Part shown: one piece after another, positions 2,996 through 14,540 of the stretch
Layout: each line of letters begins with the position of its first letter
How positions within the stretch are numbered: position 1 is the stretch's first letter
DNA from: an uncultured delta proteobacterium
Lineage (GTDB): Bacteria > Desulfobacterota > Binatia > UBA9968
Assembly: GCA_963840855.1 (NCBI GenBank)
Contig: CAWJBB010000025.1
Location: 1-14,540 of the forward strand
Length of the DNA stretch: 14,540 nucleotides
Direction: 5' to 3'
Position numbers and translations under genes: made by a program
Notes under the pieces: generated by a model
The model's input: the letters and a program-made list of their open reading frames with translations, nothing else
Database searches by the model: none
What the model was told of the DNA's origin: nothing

Positions 2996-5005
2996 GTGCT
3001 CTCGACGCCGCTTGCCTCGCTCAGGGAGTTGCTTCTCGGCAAACCCAAAGATCCTCTCGATCCGAAAGTTTTTCACCAAATATCGCTAGTTGCTTTCCTT
3101 GCCTGGGTTGGTCTTGGCGCGGACGGCCTGAGTTCCTCGGCCTACGGACCGGAAGAAGCCTTTCTCGCCCTCGGCGAGCACTTTTATCTCGCCCTGCCGC
3201 TAGCGCTTCTCATGGCGGTAACGGTCTTCGTTATATCCGCCAGCTACTCACAAATCATCGAGCTGTTTCCTACCGGTGGTGGCGGTTATCTGGTGGCAAC
3301 GAAGTTATTGGGGGCGAAGGCCGGGCTGGCGTCAGGGGCCGCGCTGGTGGTGGACTACATGTTAACCATTACAATCTCCATCGCCGCCAGCGCCGACGCC
3401 TTGTTCAGTTTCTTACCGTCGCCGTACGGGCCTTACAAGATCGTCGCGGAAGTATTTTTGATTTTCGGTCTGATTTTTTTGAATCTGCGCGGCGTGAAAG
3501 AGTCAATCATATTCCTGCTGCCGATTTTCTTGCTGTTTATTTTCATGCACATCGTTGTCATTGCCATGGGTTTACTGCCGCATCTCGGCGATATGCCAGC
3601 TTTGGTCGCGAACTCGTACCGTGAAACGGTGCACGACGTGCAGGGGTTGGGGCTGCTCGCGACATTAGCAATCTTGCTCCGTGCCTACAGCCTCGGCGGC
3701 GGCACTTATACAGGGATTGAAGCGGTGAGCAACGGACTGCAGATTTTGCGCGAGCCGCGCGTGGAGACCGGTAAAAGGACCATGGTTTACATGGCTATTT
3801 CACTCGCATTCACCGCCAGCGGGATACTGCTTTGCTATCTCTTGAATCGGGTCGCCCATGAACCGGGAAAAACCCTCAATGCCAGCTTGTTCGCAATCGT
3901 GTACGGCACCTTCTTCGGCGCCGATTCGCCAACCACCGCAGTCCTTGTGATCATCACTTTGATTACGGAGGCCGCGTTGTTGATCGTTGCCGCACAAGCC
4001 GGTTTTCTCGCCGGGCCGCGGGTGCTTGCTAACATGTCCCTGGATTCCTGGGCGCCGCACCGATTATCCCACTTGAGCGATCAGCTGGTGACCCGCAATG
4101 GCGTCTGGTTCATGGGGCTGACGTCCCTCGGGTTTCTGATTTACAGCCAAGGCCACGTCAAACTGCTGGTAGTCATGTACAGCATTAACGTGTTTCTCGT
4201 TTTCACCTTGTCGCAGATGGGAATGTGCCGCCACTGGTGGGAAGTGCGTAGATCGCAAACGCCGTGGCATCAACGACTGCTTATCGCCGGCCTGGGTTTG
4301 CTTCTAACGGGGACGATTTTGTTCGTAACCGTAACCACCAAGTTTGCGGAGGGCGGTTGGGTAACCATTTTCGTCACTCTCGTTTTCATATCGCTGTGTC
4401 AAGCCGTGCGCTGGCATTACGATCGCGTCAGAGAGGCGCTCAAGAGGCTTGATGACACGTTGCTTGGAATTCCTTTTCAGCCCGACTTGAACGCGGCCGC
4501 TCCGGTGAAGAACCCAAGCGCGCCTACTGCCGCAATCATCGTACGCGATTTTGACGGCATCGCGGTGCATACGCTACTGAACATCCAACGTTTGTTTCCC
4601 AATCATTTCAAAAACGTTGTCTTTATATCAGTTGGCGTCATCGATACCGGTCAATTCAAGGGACATGCCGAAATCGAGAACCTCAAACGCAAAAAGGAGG
4701 AGGACCTCAAGAGCTTCGTGGATTTTGCAACCTGTCTGGGTTGGTATGCCGAGTACCGTTATAGTCTCGGCGTAGATCTGATCGAGGAGTTAGAGCAACT
4801 GTGCGACGCGGTGGCCAAAGAGTTTCCGCGGGTAATTTTCTTCTGCGGCACGCTAGTGTTCGAACAGGAAAACCTGTTTACCCGTTTGTTGCACAATCAT
4901 ACTCCATTTACCTTGCAACAGCGGCTGCAGTTCTCAGGGCGGGACATGATGATTTTGCCGATTCGGGTTTTTACCGATGTTACGCCCGCGCAAAAAGCGG
5001 CATGA
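2996..5005 (+). CDS. APC-fold transporter, KimA/YdaO-like putative K+/H+ symporter
   Basis: About 12 hydrophobic segments plus a soluble C-terminal domain. ADGLSSSAYGPEE resembles KimA SDALSSVAYG. Also PTGGGGYLVA, ALVVDYMLT and TGIEAVSNG. The GTG start is uncertain. Confidence 0.85.
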   Translation: MLSTPLASLRELLLGKPKDPLDPKVFHQISLVAFLAWVGLGADGLSSSAYGPEEAFLALGEHFYLALPLALLMAVTVFVISASYSQIIELFPTGGGGYLVATKLLGAKAGLASGAALVVDYMLTITISIAASADALFSFLPSPYGPYKIVAEVFLIFGLIFLNLRGVKESIIFLLPIFLLFIFMHIVVIAMGLLPHLGDMPALVANSYRETVHDVQGLGLLATLAILLRAYSLGGGTYTGIEAVSNGLQILREPRVETGKRTMVYMAISLAFTASGILLCYLLNRVAHEPGKTLNASLFAIVYGTFFGADSPTTAVLVIITLITEAALLIVAAQAGFLAGPRVLANMSLDSWAPHRLSHLSDQLVTRNGVWFMGLTSLGFLIYSQGHVKLLVVMYSINVFLVFTLSQMGMCRHWWEVRRSQTPWHQRLLIAGLGLLLTGTILFVTVTTKFAEGGWVTIFVTLVFISLCQAVRWHYDRVREALKRLDDTLLGIPFQPDLNAAAPVKNPSAPTAAIIVRDFDGIAVHTLLNIQRLFPNHFKNVVFISVGVIDTGQFKGHAEIENLKRKKEEDLKSFVDFATCLGWYAEYRYSLGVDLIEELEQLCDAVAKEFPRVIFFCGTLVFEQENLFTRLLHNHTPFTLQQRLQFSGRDMMILPIRVFTDVTPAQKAA

Positions 5006-5063: not shown

Positions 5064-5209
5064 CTCTAGTGAGCTGCAACAATTGATCGCGTCAAGTTCG
5101 AAGAACCCTTCGACAAGCTCAGGGTGAACGGTCAAGGCAAAAGCCGTTCGTGGTGAGGCTCTCGAACCATGAACGACAAACGCTATGTAGTTGTCACAGT
5201 TCACTAGAG
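5064..5209. mobile_element. MITE-like non-coding element with imperfect terminal inverted repeats and CTAG at both ends
   Basis: 5064-5082 CTCTAGTGAGCTGCAACAA versus the reverse complement of 5191-5209, CTCTAGTGAACTGTGACAA (16/19 identical). CTAG at 5066-5069 and 5204-5207. No transposase. Confidence 0.55.
5106..5175. repeat. REP-like palindromic unit (CCCTTCGACAAGCTCAGGG...CCGTTCGTGGTGAG...TCGAACCATGAACG)
   Basis: Stems GAACGG(5126-5131)/CCGTTC(5144-5149), CGTTCGTGGT(5145-5154)/ACCATGAACG(5166-5175) and CCCT/AGGG. It resembles an intergenic repeat I recall from many bacterial genomes. Confidence 0.65.
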
Positions 5210-10385: not shown

Positions 10386-10751
10386 TTAACACCCGCAGTC
10401 CCCTGCTGCCGTCAAGCCGTAGCATTTCTGCTCAACCCAATTGGCAATTGGGCGGCGGGTGGAAGGCAGCAGTTGTGTTAGGCAGTTTTTTCCCTGCTTT
10501 GCAAGTTCCTGGTCAACCTCTGCCTCAATCTGCTCCAGTGTAATTCTTTTCGTGCTCGCCGAGCGCTCGTCAAGAAATCGCTGGAAAGCCTGACTTCCTC
10601 GCAAAGCTTCTACTTCCCTATCGAAGTCGTCAGCTTCGGCGATACAAAATTCCTTGCCATCTGGTGTCACGAGCAATACCGGCTCTCGGCACGCAATCTT
10701 AATGATTCCGTCTAAATCCAGTTTTTCTTTCTTCAAGTCGATGGTTTTCAA
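10386..10751 (-). CDS. Putative orphan Phd/YefM-like antitoxin; C-terminus probably extended by a frameshift
   Basis: MKTIDL...EPVLLVTPDGKEF has the Phd-like beta-alpha-alpha-beta-beta pattern, with an acidic helical tail ending ITLEQIEAE. TTG start. No toxin gene is adjacent. Confidence 0.55.
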   Translation of the reverse strand: MKTIDLKKEKLDLDGIIKIACREPVLLVTPDGKEFCIAEADDFDREVEALRGSQAFQRFLDERSASTKRITLEQIEAEVDQELAKQGKNCLTQLLPSTRRPIANWVEQKCYGLTAAGDCGC

Positions 10752-10823
10752 TTCTGTACCTGGTAGAAGTTTCTACAGACGCAACGAAGAAAAGCAACGA
10801 GAAAACAAAGATTCTATATTGGC

Positions 10824-11063
10824 TCACGTACCGCCCCCAGGCTCGCGTATAAGTGGCTTGTTGTCCTTCGTGACTCTAATTAGAAACCGCAGCGCCTCAT
10901 TCACTGACTCGGCACTCGGGAACACCTCTGCTACATCGGGCTCTAAACGGACAACCGAGCTGCCGAAACTCTTACGACCCGGGCCGAGCCTCGGCACCTG
11001 TAATCTCTTCAGGTCGTATTACGGCCGCAGTCGATCTTTCATCTCGGGCTTAACCTTCTTCAT
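10824..11063 (-). pseudogene. BrnT-associated (BrnA-like) antitoxin with an in-frame nonsense codon
   Basis: Hand translation: MKKVKPEMKDRLRP*YDLKRLQVPRLGPGRKSFGSSVVRLEPDVAEVFPSAESVNEALRFLIRVTKDNKPLIREPGGGT*. TAA at 11019-11021 sits where E is expected (RxEYD). Confidence 0.85.
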
Positions 11064-11172
11064 AAGCTTTTCTCTCGGAAGAGGTGACTTCTCTGGCGCT
11101 AATCACGCGCACAGACTCTCCTCTTTCTGTGTATGACACAATCAGCAAACGACCTTGCCGCGACTCGCCTAG
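11050..11172 (-). pseudogene. BrnT toxin C-terminal remnant (no N-terminus, no start codon)
   Basis: Hand translation: LGESRQGRLLIVSYTERGESVRVISAREVTSSERKAYEEG*, with the BrnT R-x-I-S-A-R...ER..Y motif. It overlaps the ATG of the downstream antitoxin. Confidence 0.85.
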
Positions 11173-11411
11173 CCGGATTTCAACTGAGCCCTGGTTTGTT
11201 TGGGAAGTGCGGTTATCACTGACCGCAACAAAGAATTTACCAACTCCGGCGACCGGAATACGGAGGCAACATCCGGGTCCAATACAACTGCGACCGTCCC
11301 GCCCTTCATCAGGGGGGCAAATCGGTTTGGACGAGACTTGCGATAGTCGAATCGATATTCTCGTCGCATTTCGTCTCTCTTTGGTCTTTTAGGACCTGAT
11401 GTTTTCTTCAT
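11169..11411 (-). CDS. BrnT-associated (BrnA-like) antitoxin, intact
   Basis: MKKTSG...DEMRREYRFDYRKSRPNRFA...VVLDPDVASVFRSPELVNSLLR, 80 aa. The ORF-track extension to 11636 overlaps brnT and is rejected. Confidence 0.85.
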   Translation of the reverse strand: MKKTSGPKRPKRDEMRREYRFDYRKSRPNRFAPLMKGGTVAVVLDPDVASVFRSPELVNSLLRSVITALPKQTRAQLKSG

Positions 11412-11608
11412 AGTCATACCACCAGCAAGCGTTCTTTGTCCGAATGACCAATGACAATCTCCCGCTGCTCTTCGATCGAGTGGTCCTCGTCGTTGAATAT
11501 TCGGGCTAGAGAATCGCCAAAGACGGTAAGCGCCTCCTCGAACGACACGCCATGCTTGGAGAGGTTGGATGTTGCTTTCCTGCGATCCCATTCGAACTTT
11601 AAGCTCAT
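11389..11608 (-). pseudogene. brnT: BrnT family toxin with internal deletion and frameshift
   Basis: FEWDRRKATSNLSKHGVSFEEA...DHSIEEQR...IGHS...LLVV, then a stop at 11414. The likely original tail DYEENIRS* follows at once in another frame (stop 11389-11391). The R-I-I-S-A-R segment is absent. Confidence 0.85.
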
Positions 11609-11913
11609 TCTTGAGAGAGCACACTAACACGATCACAACTGTCTTTCACATCGCCCTATCGAAGGATAGGACGGATACTGTTTCATTCCCAAATCGTCGA
11701 TGCGCGCTTGATGCGGAAAGTTGCAGGAAGGGACAGCAAATTAAAAATGACTACAAACACGAAAACATCGACGATAGACTTGCCAGAACGAGTACGCAGA
11801 AACAACGGAGTCAGAAAGGCACTCGTCAGGCAAGCAAGGAAAAATCCACCGCAGTCGCTATTCAGAGAGCGGGATCTGAGACTTACTGCACTAAGCTCGA
11901 AAGACTCAAACTA

Positions 11914-13044
11914 TTATTTGAAGGCTCCCTCGCTCGAAAGTCCGGCTTTCAAATTAGCGTGGAGAAGCCTGTGAAACAGGCGTTCGCCTGCTTCGCGTCT
12001 GACTGAGAGCCGCCCGGTGTTGTATGCCCGCGAAGCAAGGCCGCGCTGAACGGATTCGCATATCGCGACGTCCTCCGTCTGAATCCGTTCGCTAACACCG
12101 ATGCTGGCAAGATTGCGCTCGCGCGCGGCTTCAGACACGTCGGCGAAGTAGTAGTCGAAGATTACTTCAGTGCGATCGACCGCGAGGGGAATTACGAGAT
12201 TAGTATCCATCACTCCTTCGTAAACGTTGATCATGAAGTTCGGATAAATCCAATAGTACAGCGCCCGCTTGCCTGTCCGTACGGCGGCGGTTCGGGATTC
12301 AGCTTTATCAGTGACCATCGGGCTAGATTGCAAGCAGAAATGCTCGCCGGTTTCGATCTTGTATTTACCTGGATCGAGAACGCTGTTTAGACTGCCGTGG
12401 ATGTGGGGCACATGGTAGCCGCCGTCGAGATAGTTATCGACGAAGACTTTCCAATTACAGTTGAGCGAATAGTGGCGCCGCTCAAACCAGTGAGGTTGTT
12501 CAAGGTTCAAGGGTTCAAAACGTTCAATAAAATCTCTGCCTAACCATTCTTTCAACGATGGACCGCCCGGTTCGAGTTTTGCCAACAACCAGTGTTGCCA
12601 TTCGGCGATCTGAACCGGGACAAGCCCATTAGCCGAGCGGTCGAAATTGGCGACACCGCCGAATTCCGGCGTATGGATGAGCGCGCCTTGAAGATCATAT
12701 GTCCAGCCGTGATACGGGCAGCGGAGGTTCTCAGCTCTGCCTTGCGGCGCTGTTAAAATAGCGGCAGCGTGATGACGGCAGACGTTGAAGAAACCACGCA
12801 GGATGCCGTCGTTGCCGCGAATAACTAAAATGGGCTCGCCGGCAATCTGACAAGTTAGGTATTGGCCCGGCTCACGCACTTGATCGGCGCGCCCGACCAT
12901 TTGCCACGAGCGAGAAAACACGGTGCGCTGCTCTAGTTCAATGACACGCGGGTCGGTGTACCATGAAGAGGGAGGGGTGGAGGCTTCCGTTAATGGGCGA
13001 TCGGGATTGTACTTGGTGATTATTTCCCTGAGACCAGTGTCCAT
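11914..13044 (-). CDS. Rieske non-heme iron oxygenase alpha subunit, choline monooxygenase-like
   Basis: Rieske ligands NVCRHH...CPYHGW, mononuclear Fe site NWKVFVDNYLDGGYHVPHIH, distal EDVAICESVQRGL, and the N-terminal ASTPPSSWY. Confidence 0.93.
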   Translation of the reverse strand: MDTGLREIITKYNPDRPLTEASTPPSSWYTDPRVIELEQRTVFSRSWQMVGRADQVREPGQYLTCQIAGEPILVIRGNDGILRGFFNVCRHHAAAILTAPQGRAENLRCPYHGWTYDLQGALIHTPEFGGVANFDRSANGLVPVQIAEWQHWLLAKLEPGGPSLKEWLGRDFIERFEPLNLEQPHWFERRHYSLNCNWKVFVDNYLDGGYHVPHIHGSLNSVLDPGKYKIETGEHFCLQSSPMVTDKAESRTAAVRTGKRALYYWIYPNFMINVYEGVMDTNLVIPLAVDRTEVIFDYYFADVSEAARERNLASIGVSERIQTEDVAICESVQRGLASRAYNTGRLSVRREAGERLFHRLLHANLKAGLSSEGAFK

Positions 13045-13073
13045 GTCTTCAGGCGCAATCGGATAAGAAGCAA

Positions 13074-13319
13074 TCAGCCAGTCTTGGCAAGCGGCCGGAC
13101 TGACGGTATTACAGCGGCCGTTAACGGCTCGACGTCACACTCCGAAACAGTAGTCACCGCAATCGTGTCGCAGACGGCATTGAATACCTCCAATGCGTAA
13201 CCGTCCTCGCAGTCTTTTCCGGGCAAATACTCGACGATGGTGGCGACATCACCTTTTCGAAGTCCATGTTCCGGGAGATCGATCCGTAGCGCGACTCGCT
13301 TGAATAGATCAAGTTTCAT
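13074..13319 (-). CDS. DUF4926 domain protein
   Basis: VALRIDLPEHGLRKGDVATIVE...GYALEVFNAVCDTIAV, 81 aa. Confidence 0.88.
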   Translation of the reverse strand: MKLDLFKRVALRIDLPEHGLRKGDVATIVEYLPGKDCEDGYALEVFNAVCDTIAVTTVSECDVEPLTAAVIPSVRPLAKTG

Positions 13320-13381
13320 TGTTTTGCCCTCTTGTCGGGGACCAAGGTGACGAATCTCGTTTCTCCGGTGGCCTCAAGTCT
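13316..13381 (-). pseudogene. C-terminal stub of a DUF6883-like gene (usual upstream partner of DUF4926)
   Basis: Hand translation: RLEATGETRFVTLVPDKRAKQ*. Its TGA overlaps the DUF4926 ATG (ATGA). No start codon. Confidence 0.6.
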
Positions 13382-13404
13382 ATGCGATCTAAAGCGCAAA
13401 TCTT

Positions 13405-13650
13405 CTAACTGCCATCGCCCAAAGATTTGGCAAGTTGAGATATGTCCTCAAAGTAGCGGCGATGCGTTCGTCGCAGAGCTTTTTCGTCTGTGGCTTCCAA
13501 CAAGACGACTTCGTGCTCAATCTTACTTCGGTTGAGATTTAATTCGATCTCAAGGCGTATATTCTCTGCGCGCAACCGTTCAGATTCGTCGAATGTCTTA
13601 AAAGTAACGATACGTCCCTCGGGGCGATTATATTCAATCAGGAAAATCAT
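13405..13650 (-). CDS. Small protein, putative antitoxin of the upstream SAS (CapRel antitoxin-domain-like)
   Basis: 81 aa: MIFLIEYNR...TF...A...RLEIE...EVVLLEA.DEKALRRTHRRYFED. AGGA RBS; ATG lies 4 nt after the SAS stop. Confidence 0.75.
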   Translation of the reverse strand: MIFLIEYNRPEGRIVTFKTFDESERLRAENIRLEIELNLNRSKIEHEVVLLEATDEKALRRTHRRYFEDISQLAKSLGDGS

Positions 13651-13654
13651 TGTT

Positions 13655-14377
13655 TTAGGTCCTTTTTTTCTCAAGGGTATCAATGTGGTTCCGAAGATTT
13701 TCAGCTATCATTTTCTTTCCGAACGCCACTCCCTCTTTGAGGTCCTGGACCTTATCTACTTCGTCAGAGTCCACCTCGTTCAGTAGAAACGCCGACTCCT
13801 TCTCAATCTCCTCAAGCTTCGTAATCAGTTCACACATTGTGCCCAGCAGGTTGCGCGACTCTTCATCCCCGCCGCCATATTTGATGTTTGAGTCTACCAC
13901 GTCAGAGAGCATTTCTGAAAGTTCTGCCCAAACATGCTGCAGATAAGTCCTCACCTGGATCTCTACAGGTTTGCCTGAGCTTTCCATGATTACGTGCACA
14001 GCACGATAACCGTAACTGGGATTTATTCTACGGTCCATAATTCGTACGGTGTCGGGAAATGCAGATAGGAGTAGTCCAACTGCCTCGTCTTGTGCCAGAA
14101 TATCAGTGACGACGATACGGCACCCTGCGATATCCTGAACCTGGCTGAGTCGAATGCTTTCGCGACGTAATTTCTCGATTATCGAGCCAGTAGATTTGGC
14201 TGGCCTTCCAGTCGGTTCTAATTCGAACAGGTCCCGAATTGTTGTGATAACGGCTTTGTATTCTGCTCCGAAAGACCGTCGGTATTGATCCAACAATCTC
14301 AAATCGGCTTCTCTGGGAGGTCCCTTTCTTAAGCGCTCCCCGAGCCGGTCCACTTGGGTTTTGCTGAGAATGGCCAT
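13655..14377 (-). CDS. RelA/SpoT-domain small alarmone synthetase (putative toxSAS, CapRel-like)
   Basis: SKTQVDRLGERL, GRPAKSTGSIIEKLRR, QDIAGCRIV, GYRAVHV and VEIQVRTYLQHVWAELSE. 240 aa, with no HD, TGS or ACT domains. Confidence 0.92.
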   Translation of the reverse strand: MAILSKTQVDRLGERLRKGPPREADLRLLDQYRRSFGAEYKAVITTIRDLFELEPTGRPAKSTGSIIEKLRRESIRLSQVQDIAGCRIVVTDILAQDEAVGLLLSAFPDTVRIMDRRINPSYGYRAVHVIMESSGKPVEIQVRTYLQHVWAELSEMLSDVVDSNIKYGGGDEESRNLLGTMCELITKLEEIEKESAFLLNEVDSDEVDKVQDLKEGVAFGKKMIAENLRNHIDTLEKKRT

Positions 14378-14407
14378 AGGTCGTTCCGGGACGAAAAGTT
14401 CTGCCTC

Positions 14408-14441
14408 GGAGCTATCTTCCCGGGTCGGTCGTTATAGCTCC
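14408..14441. promoter_or_regulatory. Inverted repeat just upstream of the SAS gene
   Basis: GGAGCTAT (14408-14415) and ATAGCTCC (14434-14441) form perfect 8-bp arms, extendable by GCC/GGC with a bulge. Confidence 0.4.
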
Positions 14442-14506
14442 CGGCGGGCTTGTTGGGCGAAGATCTGGTTTCGAACTCGGTCGAGCAGCAGGGGGCTTTG
14501 CTGTTC

Positions 14507-14530
14507 AGCTCTGCCCGTGCGGGCAGGGCT
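14507..14530. other. GC-rich hairpin
   Basis: AGCT-CTGCCCG-TG-CGGGCAG-GGCT. No adjacent U-tract, so function is unknown. Confidence 0.4.
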
Positions 14531-14540
14531 ATGAATGATC

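Follow-up and report, generated by a model that had tools for sequence, protein, structure and literature searches.

The stretch of DNA analysed here, referred to below as the window, comprises 14,540 nt of contig CAWJBB010000025.1 from assembly GCA_963840855.1, the genome of an uncultured delta proteobacterium (Desulfobacterota; Binatia; UBA9968). Toward its end lie two adjacent genes on the minus strand, one for a 240-aa RelA/SpoT-type synthetase and one for an 81-aa partner, which we assign with good confidence to the toxic small alarmone synthetases (toxSAS) as a two-gene toxin-antitoxin module. The locus is laid out as follows.

Positions 13655 to 14377, minus strand: putative toxSAS toxin gene encoding 240 aa, with its ATG at 14377 and a TAA stop at 13657-13655.
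Within the encoded toxin: a toxSYNTH domain at approximately residues 1-170, followed by two long C-terminal helices (172-239) that are the likely counterpart of the anchor helices of fused CapRel.
Positions 13405 to 13650, minus strand: putative antitoxin gene of the ATphRel/ATcapRel type encoding 81 aa, with its ATG at 13650 and its stop ending at 13405.
Positions 13651 to 13669, minus strand: gene junction, with the 4-nt spacer (13651-13654), the TAA (13655-13657), a Shine-Dalgarno-like AGGA (13660-13663) and a homopolymer of 7 bases (13663-13669; read as A7 on the coding strand).

A frame change, the TAA and the 4-nt spacer separate the two open reading frames (ORFs), which would yield two polypeptides rather than one. 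The AGGA site is located 9 nt upstream of the antitoxin ATG, in keeping with the initial annotation of this DNA, which had described a stand-alone synthetase gene followed 4 nt later by a small gene with its own ribosome-binding site. Homologues of the small protein begin M-I-F-L-I-E-Y, so the ATG at 13650, and not the upstream TTG of a 92-aa ORF, is taken as the true start. In contigs of two soil runs the homopolymer at 13663-13669 carries one extra base, which would lengthen the toxin to 243 aa (ending ...EKKKDLKQ) and make its TGA overlap the antitoxin ATG (ATGA). Of 46 related loci, 25 have this stop/start overlap; the window itself has the 4-nt spacer. A promoter scan of positions 13000-14540 returned 1 site against 1.4 expected, located within the toxin gene, and all terminator-like sites in the same interval were on the non-coding strand. 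Only 163 nt of contig remain upstream of the toxin gene, leaving little of its promoter region visible.

RelA_SpoT (E 1.1e-15, residues 60-152) is the only Pfam domain of the synthetase; the scan found no hydrolase domain. Alignment with Phrann gp29, a corynephage small alarmone synthetase (SAS) and CapRel-SJ46 identified residues common to all three as K61, D82, R87, G123-Y124, H128, E139, Q141 and R143, with R87 corresponding to SJ46 R116 and Y124 to the SJ46 G-loop tyrosine Y155. The core synthetase motifs noted in the initial annotation are thus intact. Among phage records, 21 of which were matched, the best match was gp29 (PhRel) of Phrann, with 36% identity over 177 residues (E 9e-19); CapRel-SJ46 showed 23% identity (E 1e-3) in the same search. 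The synthetase also matches the PADLOC model PDC-S33 (3.2e-31) over positions 8-246 of 349. A profile of the 37-member clade to which the synthetase belongs gave 106 bits to gp29, 91 to WST1, 76 to a Pasteurella phage SAS, 69 to the corynephage (IME1320) SAS and 67 to CapRel-SJ46, compared with 46 bits to a RelQ-like SAS and 22 and 17 bits to two long Rel proteins.

Structural comparison placed the synthetase in the same neighborhood. Its AlphaFold2 model (predicted local distance difference test, pLDDT, 94.4) has as its top Foldseek matches the CapRel-SJ46 structures 9erv_A and 7ztb, with query-normalized TM-scores (TMq) of 0.69-0.70 over 256-260 columns, tail helices included. RelP and RelQ reached TMq 0.44-0.50 over approximately 190 columns, and FaRel2 ranked 38th with TMq 0.36. 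Residues 171-240 have an isoelectric point (pI) of 4.64 and are modelled as two long helices, H172-201 and H204-239, which bears out an acidic helical tail proposed earlier from the sequence. The CapRel-SJ46 superposition spans these C-terminal helices, and the acidic tail is therefore interpreted as the counterpart of the CapRel anchor helices. In a quick maximum-likelihood tree the actinophage PhRel group was nested among members of the clade (SH-aLRT 93). Sequence and model comparison both place the synthetase in a PhRel/CapRel clade of toxSAS, as the initial annotation had supposed. Only one other RelA/SpoT homologue (RSH) is encoded in the genome, a long Rel.

No Pfam or NCBIfam family was matched by the small protein. 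Its family nonetheless comprises 961 clusters at 90% identity (range 44-142 aa) and 531 representatives at 50% identity, and the small gene is for this reason considered real rather than a chance ORF. Among 78 diverse homologues, L4, E36 and R65 are invariant, and M1, Y7, R9, A28, R32, E47, V49, L51, A53, T62, H63, Y66 and F67 are at least 90% conserved. The motif T62-H63-R64-R65-Y66-F67 is thus invariant or at least 90% conserved at every position other than the fourth-from-last, R64. A profile of the 78 homologues was aligned by hhalign with Phrann gp30, the validated antitoxin ATphRel, at a probability of 97.5% (E 6.2e-12), with FLIEFNR and LKRTHSRYF in register and THSRYF aligned to THRRYF. 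The 66-aa partner of the corynephage SAS, with the motif SHSRYF, was aligned at 98.2% (E 4.8e-14). In CapRel-SJ46, residues 307-363 were aligned with AYPNYF under THRRYF and H63-R-R-Y66 opposite Y352-P-N-Y355, at a probability of 17.8%, which is weak when taken alone. The link to CapRel is firmer because PDC-S33 is matched by both: by the small protein at positions 265-338 (E 7.1e-7) and by CapRel-SJ46 end to end (7e-87).

The AlphaFold2 model of the small protein (pLDDT 88) consists of two strands, a long helix, a third strand and two short helices (beta-beta-alpha-beta-alpha). When this model was compared with 48,161 PDB representatives using VIA-align, a single match reached Z >= 5, namely ATfaRel2 (8pu3_A, 74 residues, from the FaRel2/ATfaRel2 complex; Z 5.2, root-mean-square deviation (rmsd) 1.9 A over 57 residues). 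CapRel 7ztb_A residues 286-349 ranked fourth (Z 4.6, rmsd 3.7 A, 55 residues); rows within 1 Z unit were counted as tied. Foldseek of the same model against the PDB gave 0 matches at E <= 0.001, with 7ztb at rank 2-3 (E ~1.3). The domain appears to be pseudo-zinc-finger-like, its absolute fold matches being weak, and we regard the modelled fold as consistent with an antitoxin of this type, not as proof of it. The resemblance of the partner to the CapRel antitoxin domain, first suggested in the initial annotation, is retained: hhalign pairs EVVLLEA...THRRYF with VLLA...AYPNYF, and the shared PADLOC model and the fold back this alignment. Direct comparison with CapRel-SJ46 supplied an aligned motif and a fourth-ranking fold, each of them weak by score. 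The idea that H-x-x-Y had locally replaced the Y-x-x-Y inhibitory motif did not hold up, as H63 is conserved across the family and the histidine is also found in gp30 and the corynephage partner; by these alignments H-x-x-Y is the conserved state of this antitoxin family.

The two proteins were also modelled as a complex, which gave an ipSAE of 0.82 against 0.18 for the best control. Of 80 solved complexes, 58 attained the mark applied, as did 2 of 110 mismatched pairs. The runs agreed in 88% or more of their contacts, and the partner had a pLDDT of at least 88. In the model, strand 47-54 (HEVVLLEA) of the antitoxin packs alongside strand 54-60 of the toxin, residues 58-65 of the antitoxin contact R87, V89 and residue 148 of the toxin, and the C-terminal end of the antitoxin (73-80) lies against the toxin tail (218-232). 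As to whether THRRYF docks in the active site, a question raised in the initial annotation, the helix bearing the motif is predicted to contact the ATP-donor site at R87 and V89. Because a like complex (8pu3) has already been solved, passing the controls may show no more than likeness.

The pairing itself is conserved. A contig scan with the single small protein found 60 genome loci encoding its relatives, and in 46 of them the small gene is immediately preceded by a SAS match on its own strand; by record titles the loci are distributed over many phyla. This answers in the affirmative the earlier question of whether the gene pair recurs in other genomes. In 34 of the 46, with start codons assigned by rule of thumb, an ORF of at least 220 aa lies between -32 and +30 nt relative to the small gene; besides the loci with the 4-nt ATGA overlap, 5 have a 1-nt overlap, and none is fused. 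The remaining 14 of the 60 loci have no SAS match, one of which has only 64 nt upstream and is not judgeable. The others are preceded by genes unrelated to a SAS (MacB/FtsX, a type II secretion system ATPase, a DEAD helicase, a cytochrome, a RelE/Xre pair). Full fusions of SAS and antitoxin account for 2 of 15 longer relatives, P0121 (323 aa) and P0129 (319 aa). Named records with relatives include uncultured Acidobacteriota, Planctomycetota, Binatia, Elusimicrobia and Omnitrophota, among others. Within the order to which the window belongs, the small gene occurs in 5 of 41 genomes, its own included, and this patchy, self-contained spread fits a mobile toxin-antitoxin module.

We conclude, with a probability of about 0.8, that the two genes form a type II toxin-antitoxin module belonging to the PhRel/CapRel clade of toxSAS. 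The computed basis for this assignment is the homology of both parts to a validated toxSAS toxin and antitoxin, the intact residues, the conserved and coupled gene pair, and a complex model that passes its controls. It is hypothesized that the upstream gene yields the toxin, whose one domain is a RelA/SpoT synthetase and which carries CapRel-like anchor helices, and that the downstream gene, translationally coupled to it, yields an antitoxin of pseudo-zinc-finger-like fold. According to the complex model, antitoxin strand 47-54 would pair with toxin strand 54-60, and the helix that follows, carrying T62-H63-x-R65-Y66-F67, would block R87/V89 of the ATP-donor site in the manner of CapRel-SJ46 in cis and ATfaRel2 in trans, with the acidic C-terminal helices of the toxin also holding the C-terminal end of the antitoxin. 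The toxin would be freed if the antitoxin were lost or bound by a phage protein, and the cell would then be arrested. Either phage defence or mere genomic maintenance is conceivable as the role of such a module here. An anti-phage role is possible, and the genomic context lends it no support.

The substrate can be addressed by analogy only. PhRel and CapRel are reported to inhibit translation specifically, and the toxSAS tested in vitro pyrophosphorylate the 3'-CCA of tRNA (bioRxiv 10.1101/2021.04.30.441581); antitoxins of the pseudo-zinc-finger domain (pZFD) type are described as blocking the ATP-donor site and as accompanying tRNA-targeting toxSAS (PMC11782079). Given the type II toxSAS assignment, tRNA would thus probably be the substrate, at odds of about two in three. 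According to Kurata et al., tRNA-using toxSAS have no clear sequence signature, and for this reason the substrate is not readable from sequence.

Besides this missing signature, a number of observations weigh against the assignment or parts of it. SJ46 R79 was aligned to synthetase P59, with R58 adjacent, such that the arginine is displaced by one position; because G57-R58 is at least 90% conserved among the 37 clade members, the offset is read as a one-residue register difference, which the alignment suggests and does not prove. A plain phmmer search of PDB sequences ranked RelQ first (7.5e-7), with CapRel-SJ46 at 4e-4. The quick tree of 45 sequences left 23 of 42 inner branches unsupported and did not separate the subfamilies, and SJ46 and the RelQ-like sequence sat on very long branches. 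The fold matches of the small protein are weak (Z 4.6-5.2, nearly tied with unrelated rows; Foldseek E ~1), and neither its single sequence nor the 78-row profile had a relevant match among PDB sequences, the best match of the profile being an endoglycosidase (E 0.12). As regards defence, the neighbors in the window are signalling, transport and metabolic genes, and 115 crude ORFs flanking 35 pairs showed no recurrent family (DNA methylase 3 of 115, GNAT 3 of 115). Neither the single protein nor a 25-row alignment found a relative of the small protein in viral contigs (IMG/VR), by a method that detects close relatives only. Finally, a frameshift-ridden copy of the pair is present in the same genome bin, so the module would seem to be dispensable.

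Details of this copy come from strain variants in the bin, which has a contamination of 8.27%. Variants approximately 97% identical to most of the window are found on contigs C36 (G000:C36:33220-43971) and C5. On C5 (G000:C5:8267-11512, locus L006) the stretch of the pair is 92.9% identical and contains 43 indels, 41 of them frameshifting and 33 from 13600 onward. The toxin gene, the antitoxin gene (2 TGA stops) and a Rieske oxygenase gene are all broken there by many 1-2 base indels, and a DUF4926 gene is intact. This pattern may represent either loss of the module in a sister strain or poor assembly. Among public sequencing runs, none contained more than 0.20 of the sampled words; short soil-metagenome contigs from the 4 runs examined match pieces of both genes at 91-100%. 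A metatranscriptome library contributed one 248-nt contig that agrees with 14060-14307 at every base; since carry-over of DNA is possible, this is no proof of transcription.

Among known systems, the closest comparison is PhRel:ATphRel of Mycobacterium phage Phrann (gp29:gp30). Both systems have two genes, toxin first, with close spacing; the toxins share the identity given above, and the antitoxins share FLIE(Y/F)NR and TH-x-RYF. The Phrann pair resides in a temperate actinophage, whereas the present pair is chromosomal and lies between metabolic genes of an uncultured soil bacterium, and compared with their counterparts here, gp29 has more residues (292 aa) and gp30 fewer (71 aa). CapRel:ATcapRel of Mycobacterium sp. 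AB308 (Jimmy et al. 2020, PMC7229694) has the same architecture, a likeness drawn from its published description. As reported there, ATcapRel is homologous to ATphRel, CapRel and PhRel are sister clades, and both toxins proved toxic and were neutralised by these homologous antitoxins. Fused CapRel-SJ46 (PDB 7ZTB, 9ERV; represented by PADLOC PDC-S33) provides the best structural match to the toxin through its toxSYNTH domain and anchor helices, its R116/Y155 correspond to R87/Y124, and its C-terminal pseudo-zinc-finger domain aligns with the 81-aa protein. It differs in being a single polypeptide with Y-x-x-Y, where the present pair has two genes and H-x-x-Y, in its toxin identity of only 23%, and in being phage-borne with a proven capsid trigger, whereas the present pair is chromosomal. 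FaRel2:ATfaRel2 of Coprobacillus sp. D7 (PDB 8PU3) is likewise a two-gene toxSAS system neutralised in trans, and ATfaRel2 is the top fold match of the antitoxin. Its mode of neutralisation, described as beta-sheet extension together with a motif that blocks the ATP site (PMC11782079), resembles that predicted by the present complex model. It shows no detectable sequence similarity to our pair, FaRel2 is a poorer match to the toxin (TMq 0.36), and the order of elements at the termini, as given in the ATfaRel2 paper, differs.

The initial annotation had proposed a divergent, split CapRel. In its fullest form this explanation holds that the pair derives from a recently split fused CapRel, that the freed domain is a phage sensor with a new trigger, and that H-x-x-Y is adaptive. 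Both halves match PDC-S33 in order (8-246 and 265-338), the toxin keeps CapRel-like anchor helices, and rare fused relatives (P0121, P0129) exist, all of which would suit such an origin. The two-gene form is, however, the rule in the clade (0 of 46 fused, and 2 full fusions among the 15 longer relatives), the toxin resembles two-gene PhRel more closely than it does fused CapRel-SJ46, and H-x-x-Y is family-wide and present in validated gp30. We consider a recent split unlikely. Two genes with the toxin preceding the antitoxin is also the form that was validated first (Phrann gp29:gp30 and Mycobacterium CapRel:ATcapRel; PMC7229694). Zhang et al. describe CapRel as mostly fused except in Actinobacteria, with a C-terminal domain homologous to two-gene antitoxins (PMC9712102); what had been called a split CapRel is thus the known two-gene form. 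An ordinary RelQ/RelP-like SAS that makes (p)ppGpp for stress signalling, with the small protein as its regulator, would account for the first rank of RelQ in the phmmer search, for the chromosomal metabolic context and for a genome in which the only other RSH is a long Rel. It is very improbable in view of the clade profile (46 bits against 106 for PhRel), the structural match (TMq 0.50 against 0.70 for CapRel), a partner homologous to a validated antitoxin, the patchy distribution among related genomes (5 of 41) and decay in the sister variant.

A PANGU-like system, in which a small partner activates a toxSAS bearing an acidic, DNA-mimicking C-terminal domain (described in bioRxiv 10.64898/2026.04.06.716658), is also a two-gene system with a toxSAS, and the synthetase here does have an acidic helical tail (pI 4.64). 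Its partner shows homology to the antitoxin gp30, is modelled over the ATP-donor site and is itself acidic (pI 5.7), a property that we would not expect in a DNA-clamping protein. The tail superposes on the CapRel anchor helices, and the comparison with PANGU (Pag1A/Pag1B) was made from its published description. We give this explanation hardly any weight. That the pair is a non-functional relic, two ORFs without an active toxin, is suggested by toxin-antitoxin remnants in the same block, by the co-binned variant with its indels mostly in the toxin gene, and by a junction one homopolymer base away from the usual ATGA overlap. Set beside 37 and 78 homologues, however, both frames are complete, of full length and lacking none of the conserved residues. 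Independent soil runs also contain identical or nearly identical pieces, and those that were compared show no net disruption of the frame, so a relic seems highly unlikely. A two-gene PhRel/CapRel toxin-antitoxin module thus remains our preferred reading of the pair.

Under this reading the pair is an ordinary member of a known family, and toxSAS modules of its clade have already been validated and are mechanistically understood. Its interest lies in distribution and annotation. The two-gene PhRel/CapRel form, described in PMC9712102 as mainly actinobacterial, is widespread in many non-actinobacterial lineages. The antitoxin family has no Pfam model, and PADLOC detects the two halves only via a candidate model of fused CapRel; such pairs are therefore likely missed or mislabelled in annotation.

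The ATphRel-like domain may tentatively be viewed as a portable neutraliser or sensor module and not merely the dedicated inhibitor of one toxin, although we think this doubtful. The domain stands alone, with its motif intact, beside unrelated genes in approximately 13 of the 60 loci. In rare cases it also occupies the N-terminus of longer proteins (P0122, P0282, P0127/P0130, P0125/P0144, P0143, P0145, P0157, P0182, P0191). Its fusion partners include a pP_pnuc_1 nuclease (PADLOC Aga_Nuclease) in P0122 and a GNAT acetyltransferase in P0282, and there are recurrent unknown C-terminal domains, one in P0127/P0130 and a Cys-rich tail in P0125/P0144. Elements of the pZFD type are treated as almost exclusive to toxSAS in PMC10440598. 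If the domain were portable, the free antitoxin here would be the phage-sensing part, and orphan copies could give immunity against incoming toxSAS. Two further longer proteins, P0185 and P0195, look as if a toxin gene with an internal deletion had been fused to the antitoxin. At three loci titled Binatia or Deltaproteobacteria (L012, L014 and L049), an orphan antitoxin gene follows ORFs of approximately 104 and 106-126 aa, at almost identical positions in each (3363-4249). The preceding ORFs in L012 score as RelE and an Xre/MqsA-type helix-turn-helix protein, and no toxSAS is present there.

The surroundings of the pair contain several other features. The local context is metabolic and is neither a defence island nor a prophage. 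On C5, the region past the window end codes for a cupin, a glyoxalase, a molybdenum hydroxylase and EutA, with no phage, integrase or defence gene seen. The DUF4926 gene (13074-13319, minus strand, 81 aa, Pfam 1.4e-12) is located 85 nt downstream of the antitoxin gene and is 100% identical in C5. It was considered as a linked partner of the pair and rejected, being adjacent in 0 of the 60 other loci.

Overlapping short ORFs resembling toxin-antitoxin remnants occupy positions 10386-11636. The pair had been described as the only complete one in a block of decayed toxin-antitoxin pairs; the part of this that stands concerns one remnant, a 64-aa ORF (11414-11608, minus strand) of which only the first 34 residues match the 94-aa PDB 'toxin' 7vd7_A (E 6.3e-8), and the rest was read by eye. 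A 121-aa ORF in the same block (10386-10751, minus strand) had no match among PDB sequences. The short ORFs of the block may be BrnT/BrnA-like or Phd-like. Elsewhere in the window, a stretch of approximately 140 bases at 5066-5207 has further copies, 86-95% identical, on at least 13 other contigs of the genome, sometimes two per contig, and looks like a short dispersed repeat between a permease gene and a DUF488 gene.

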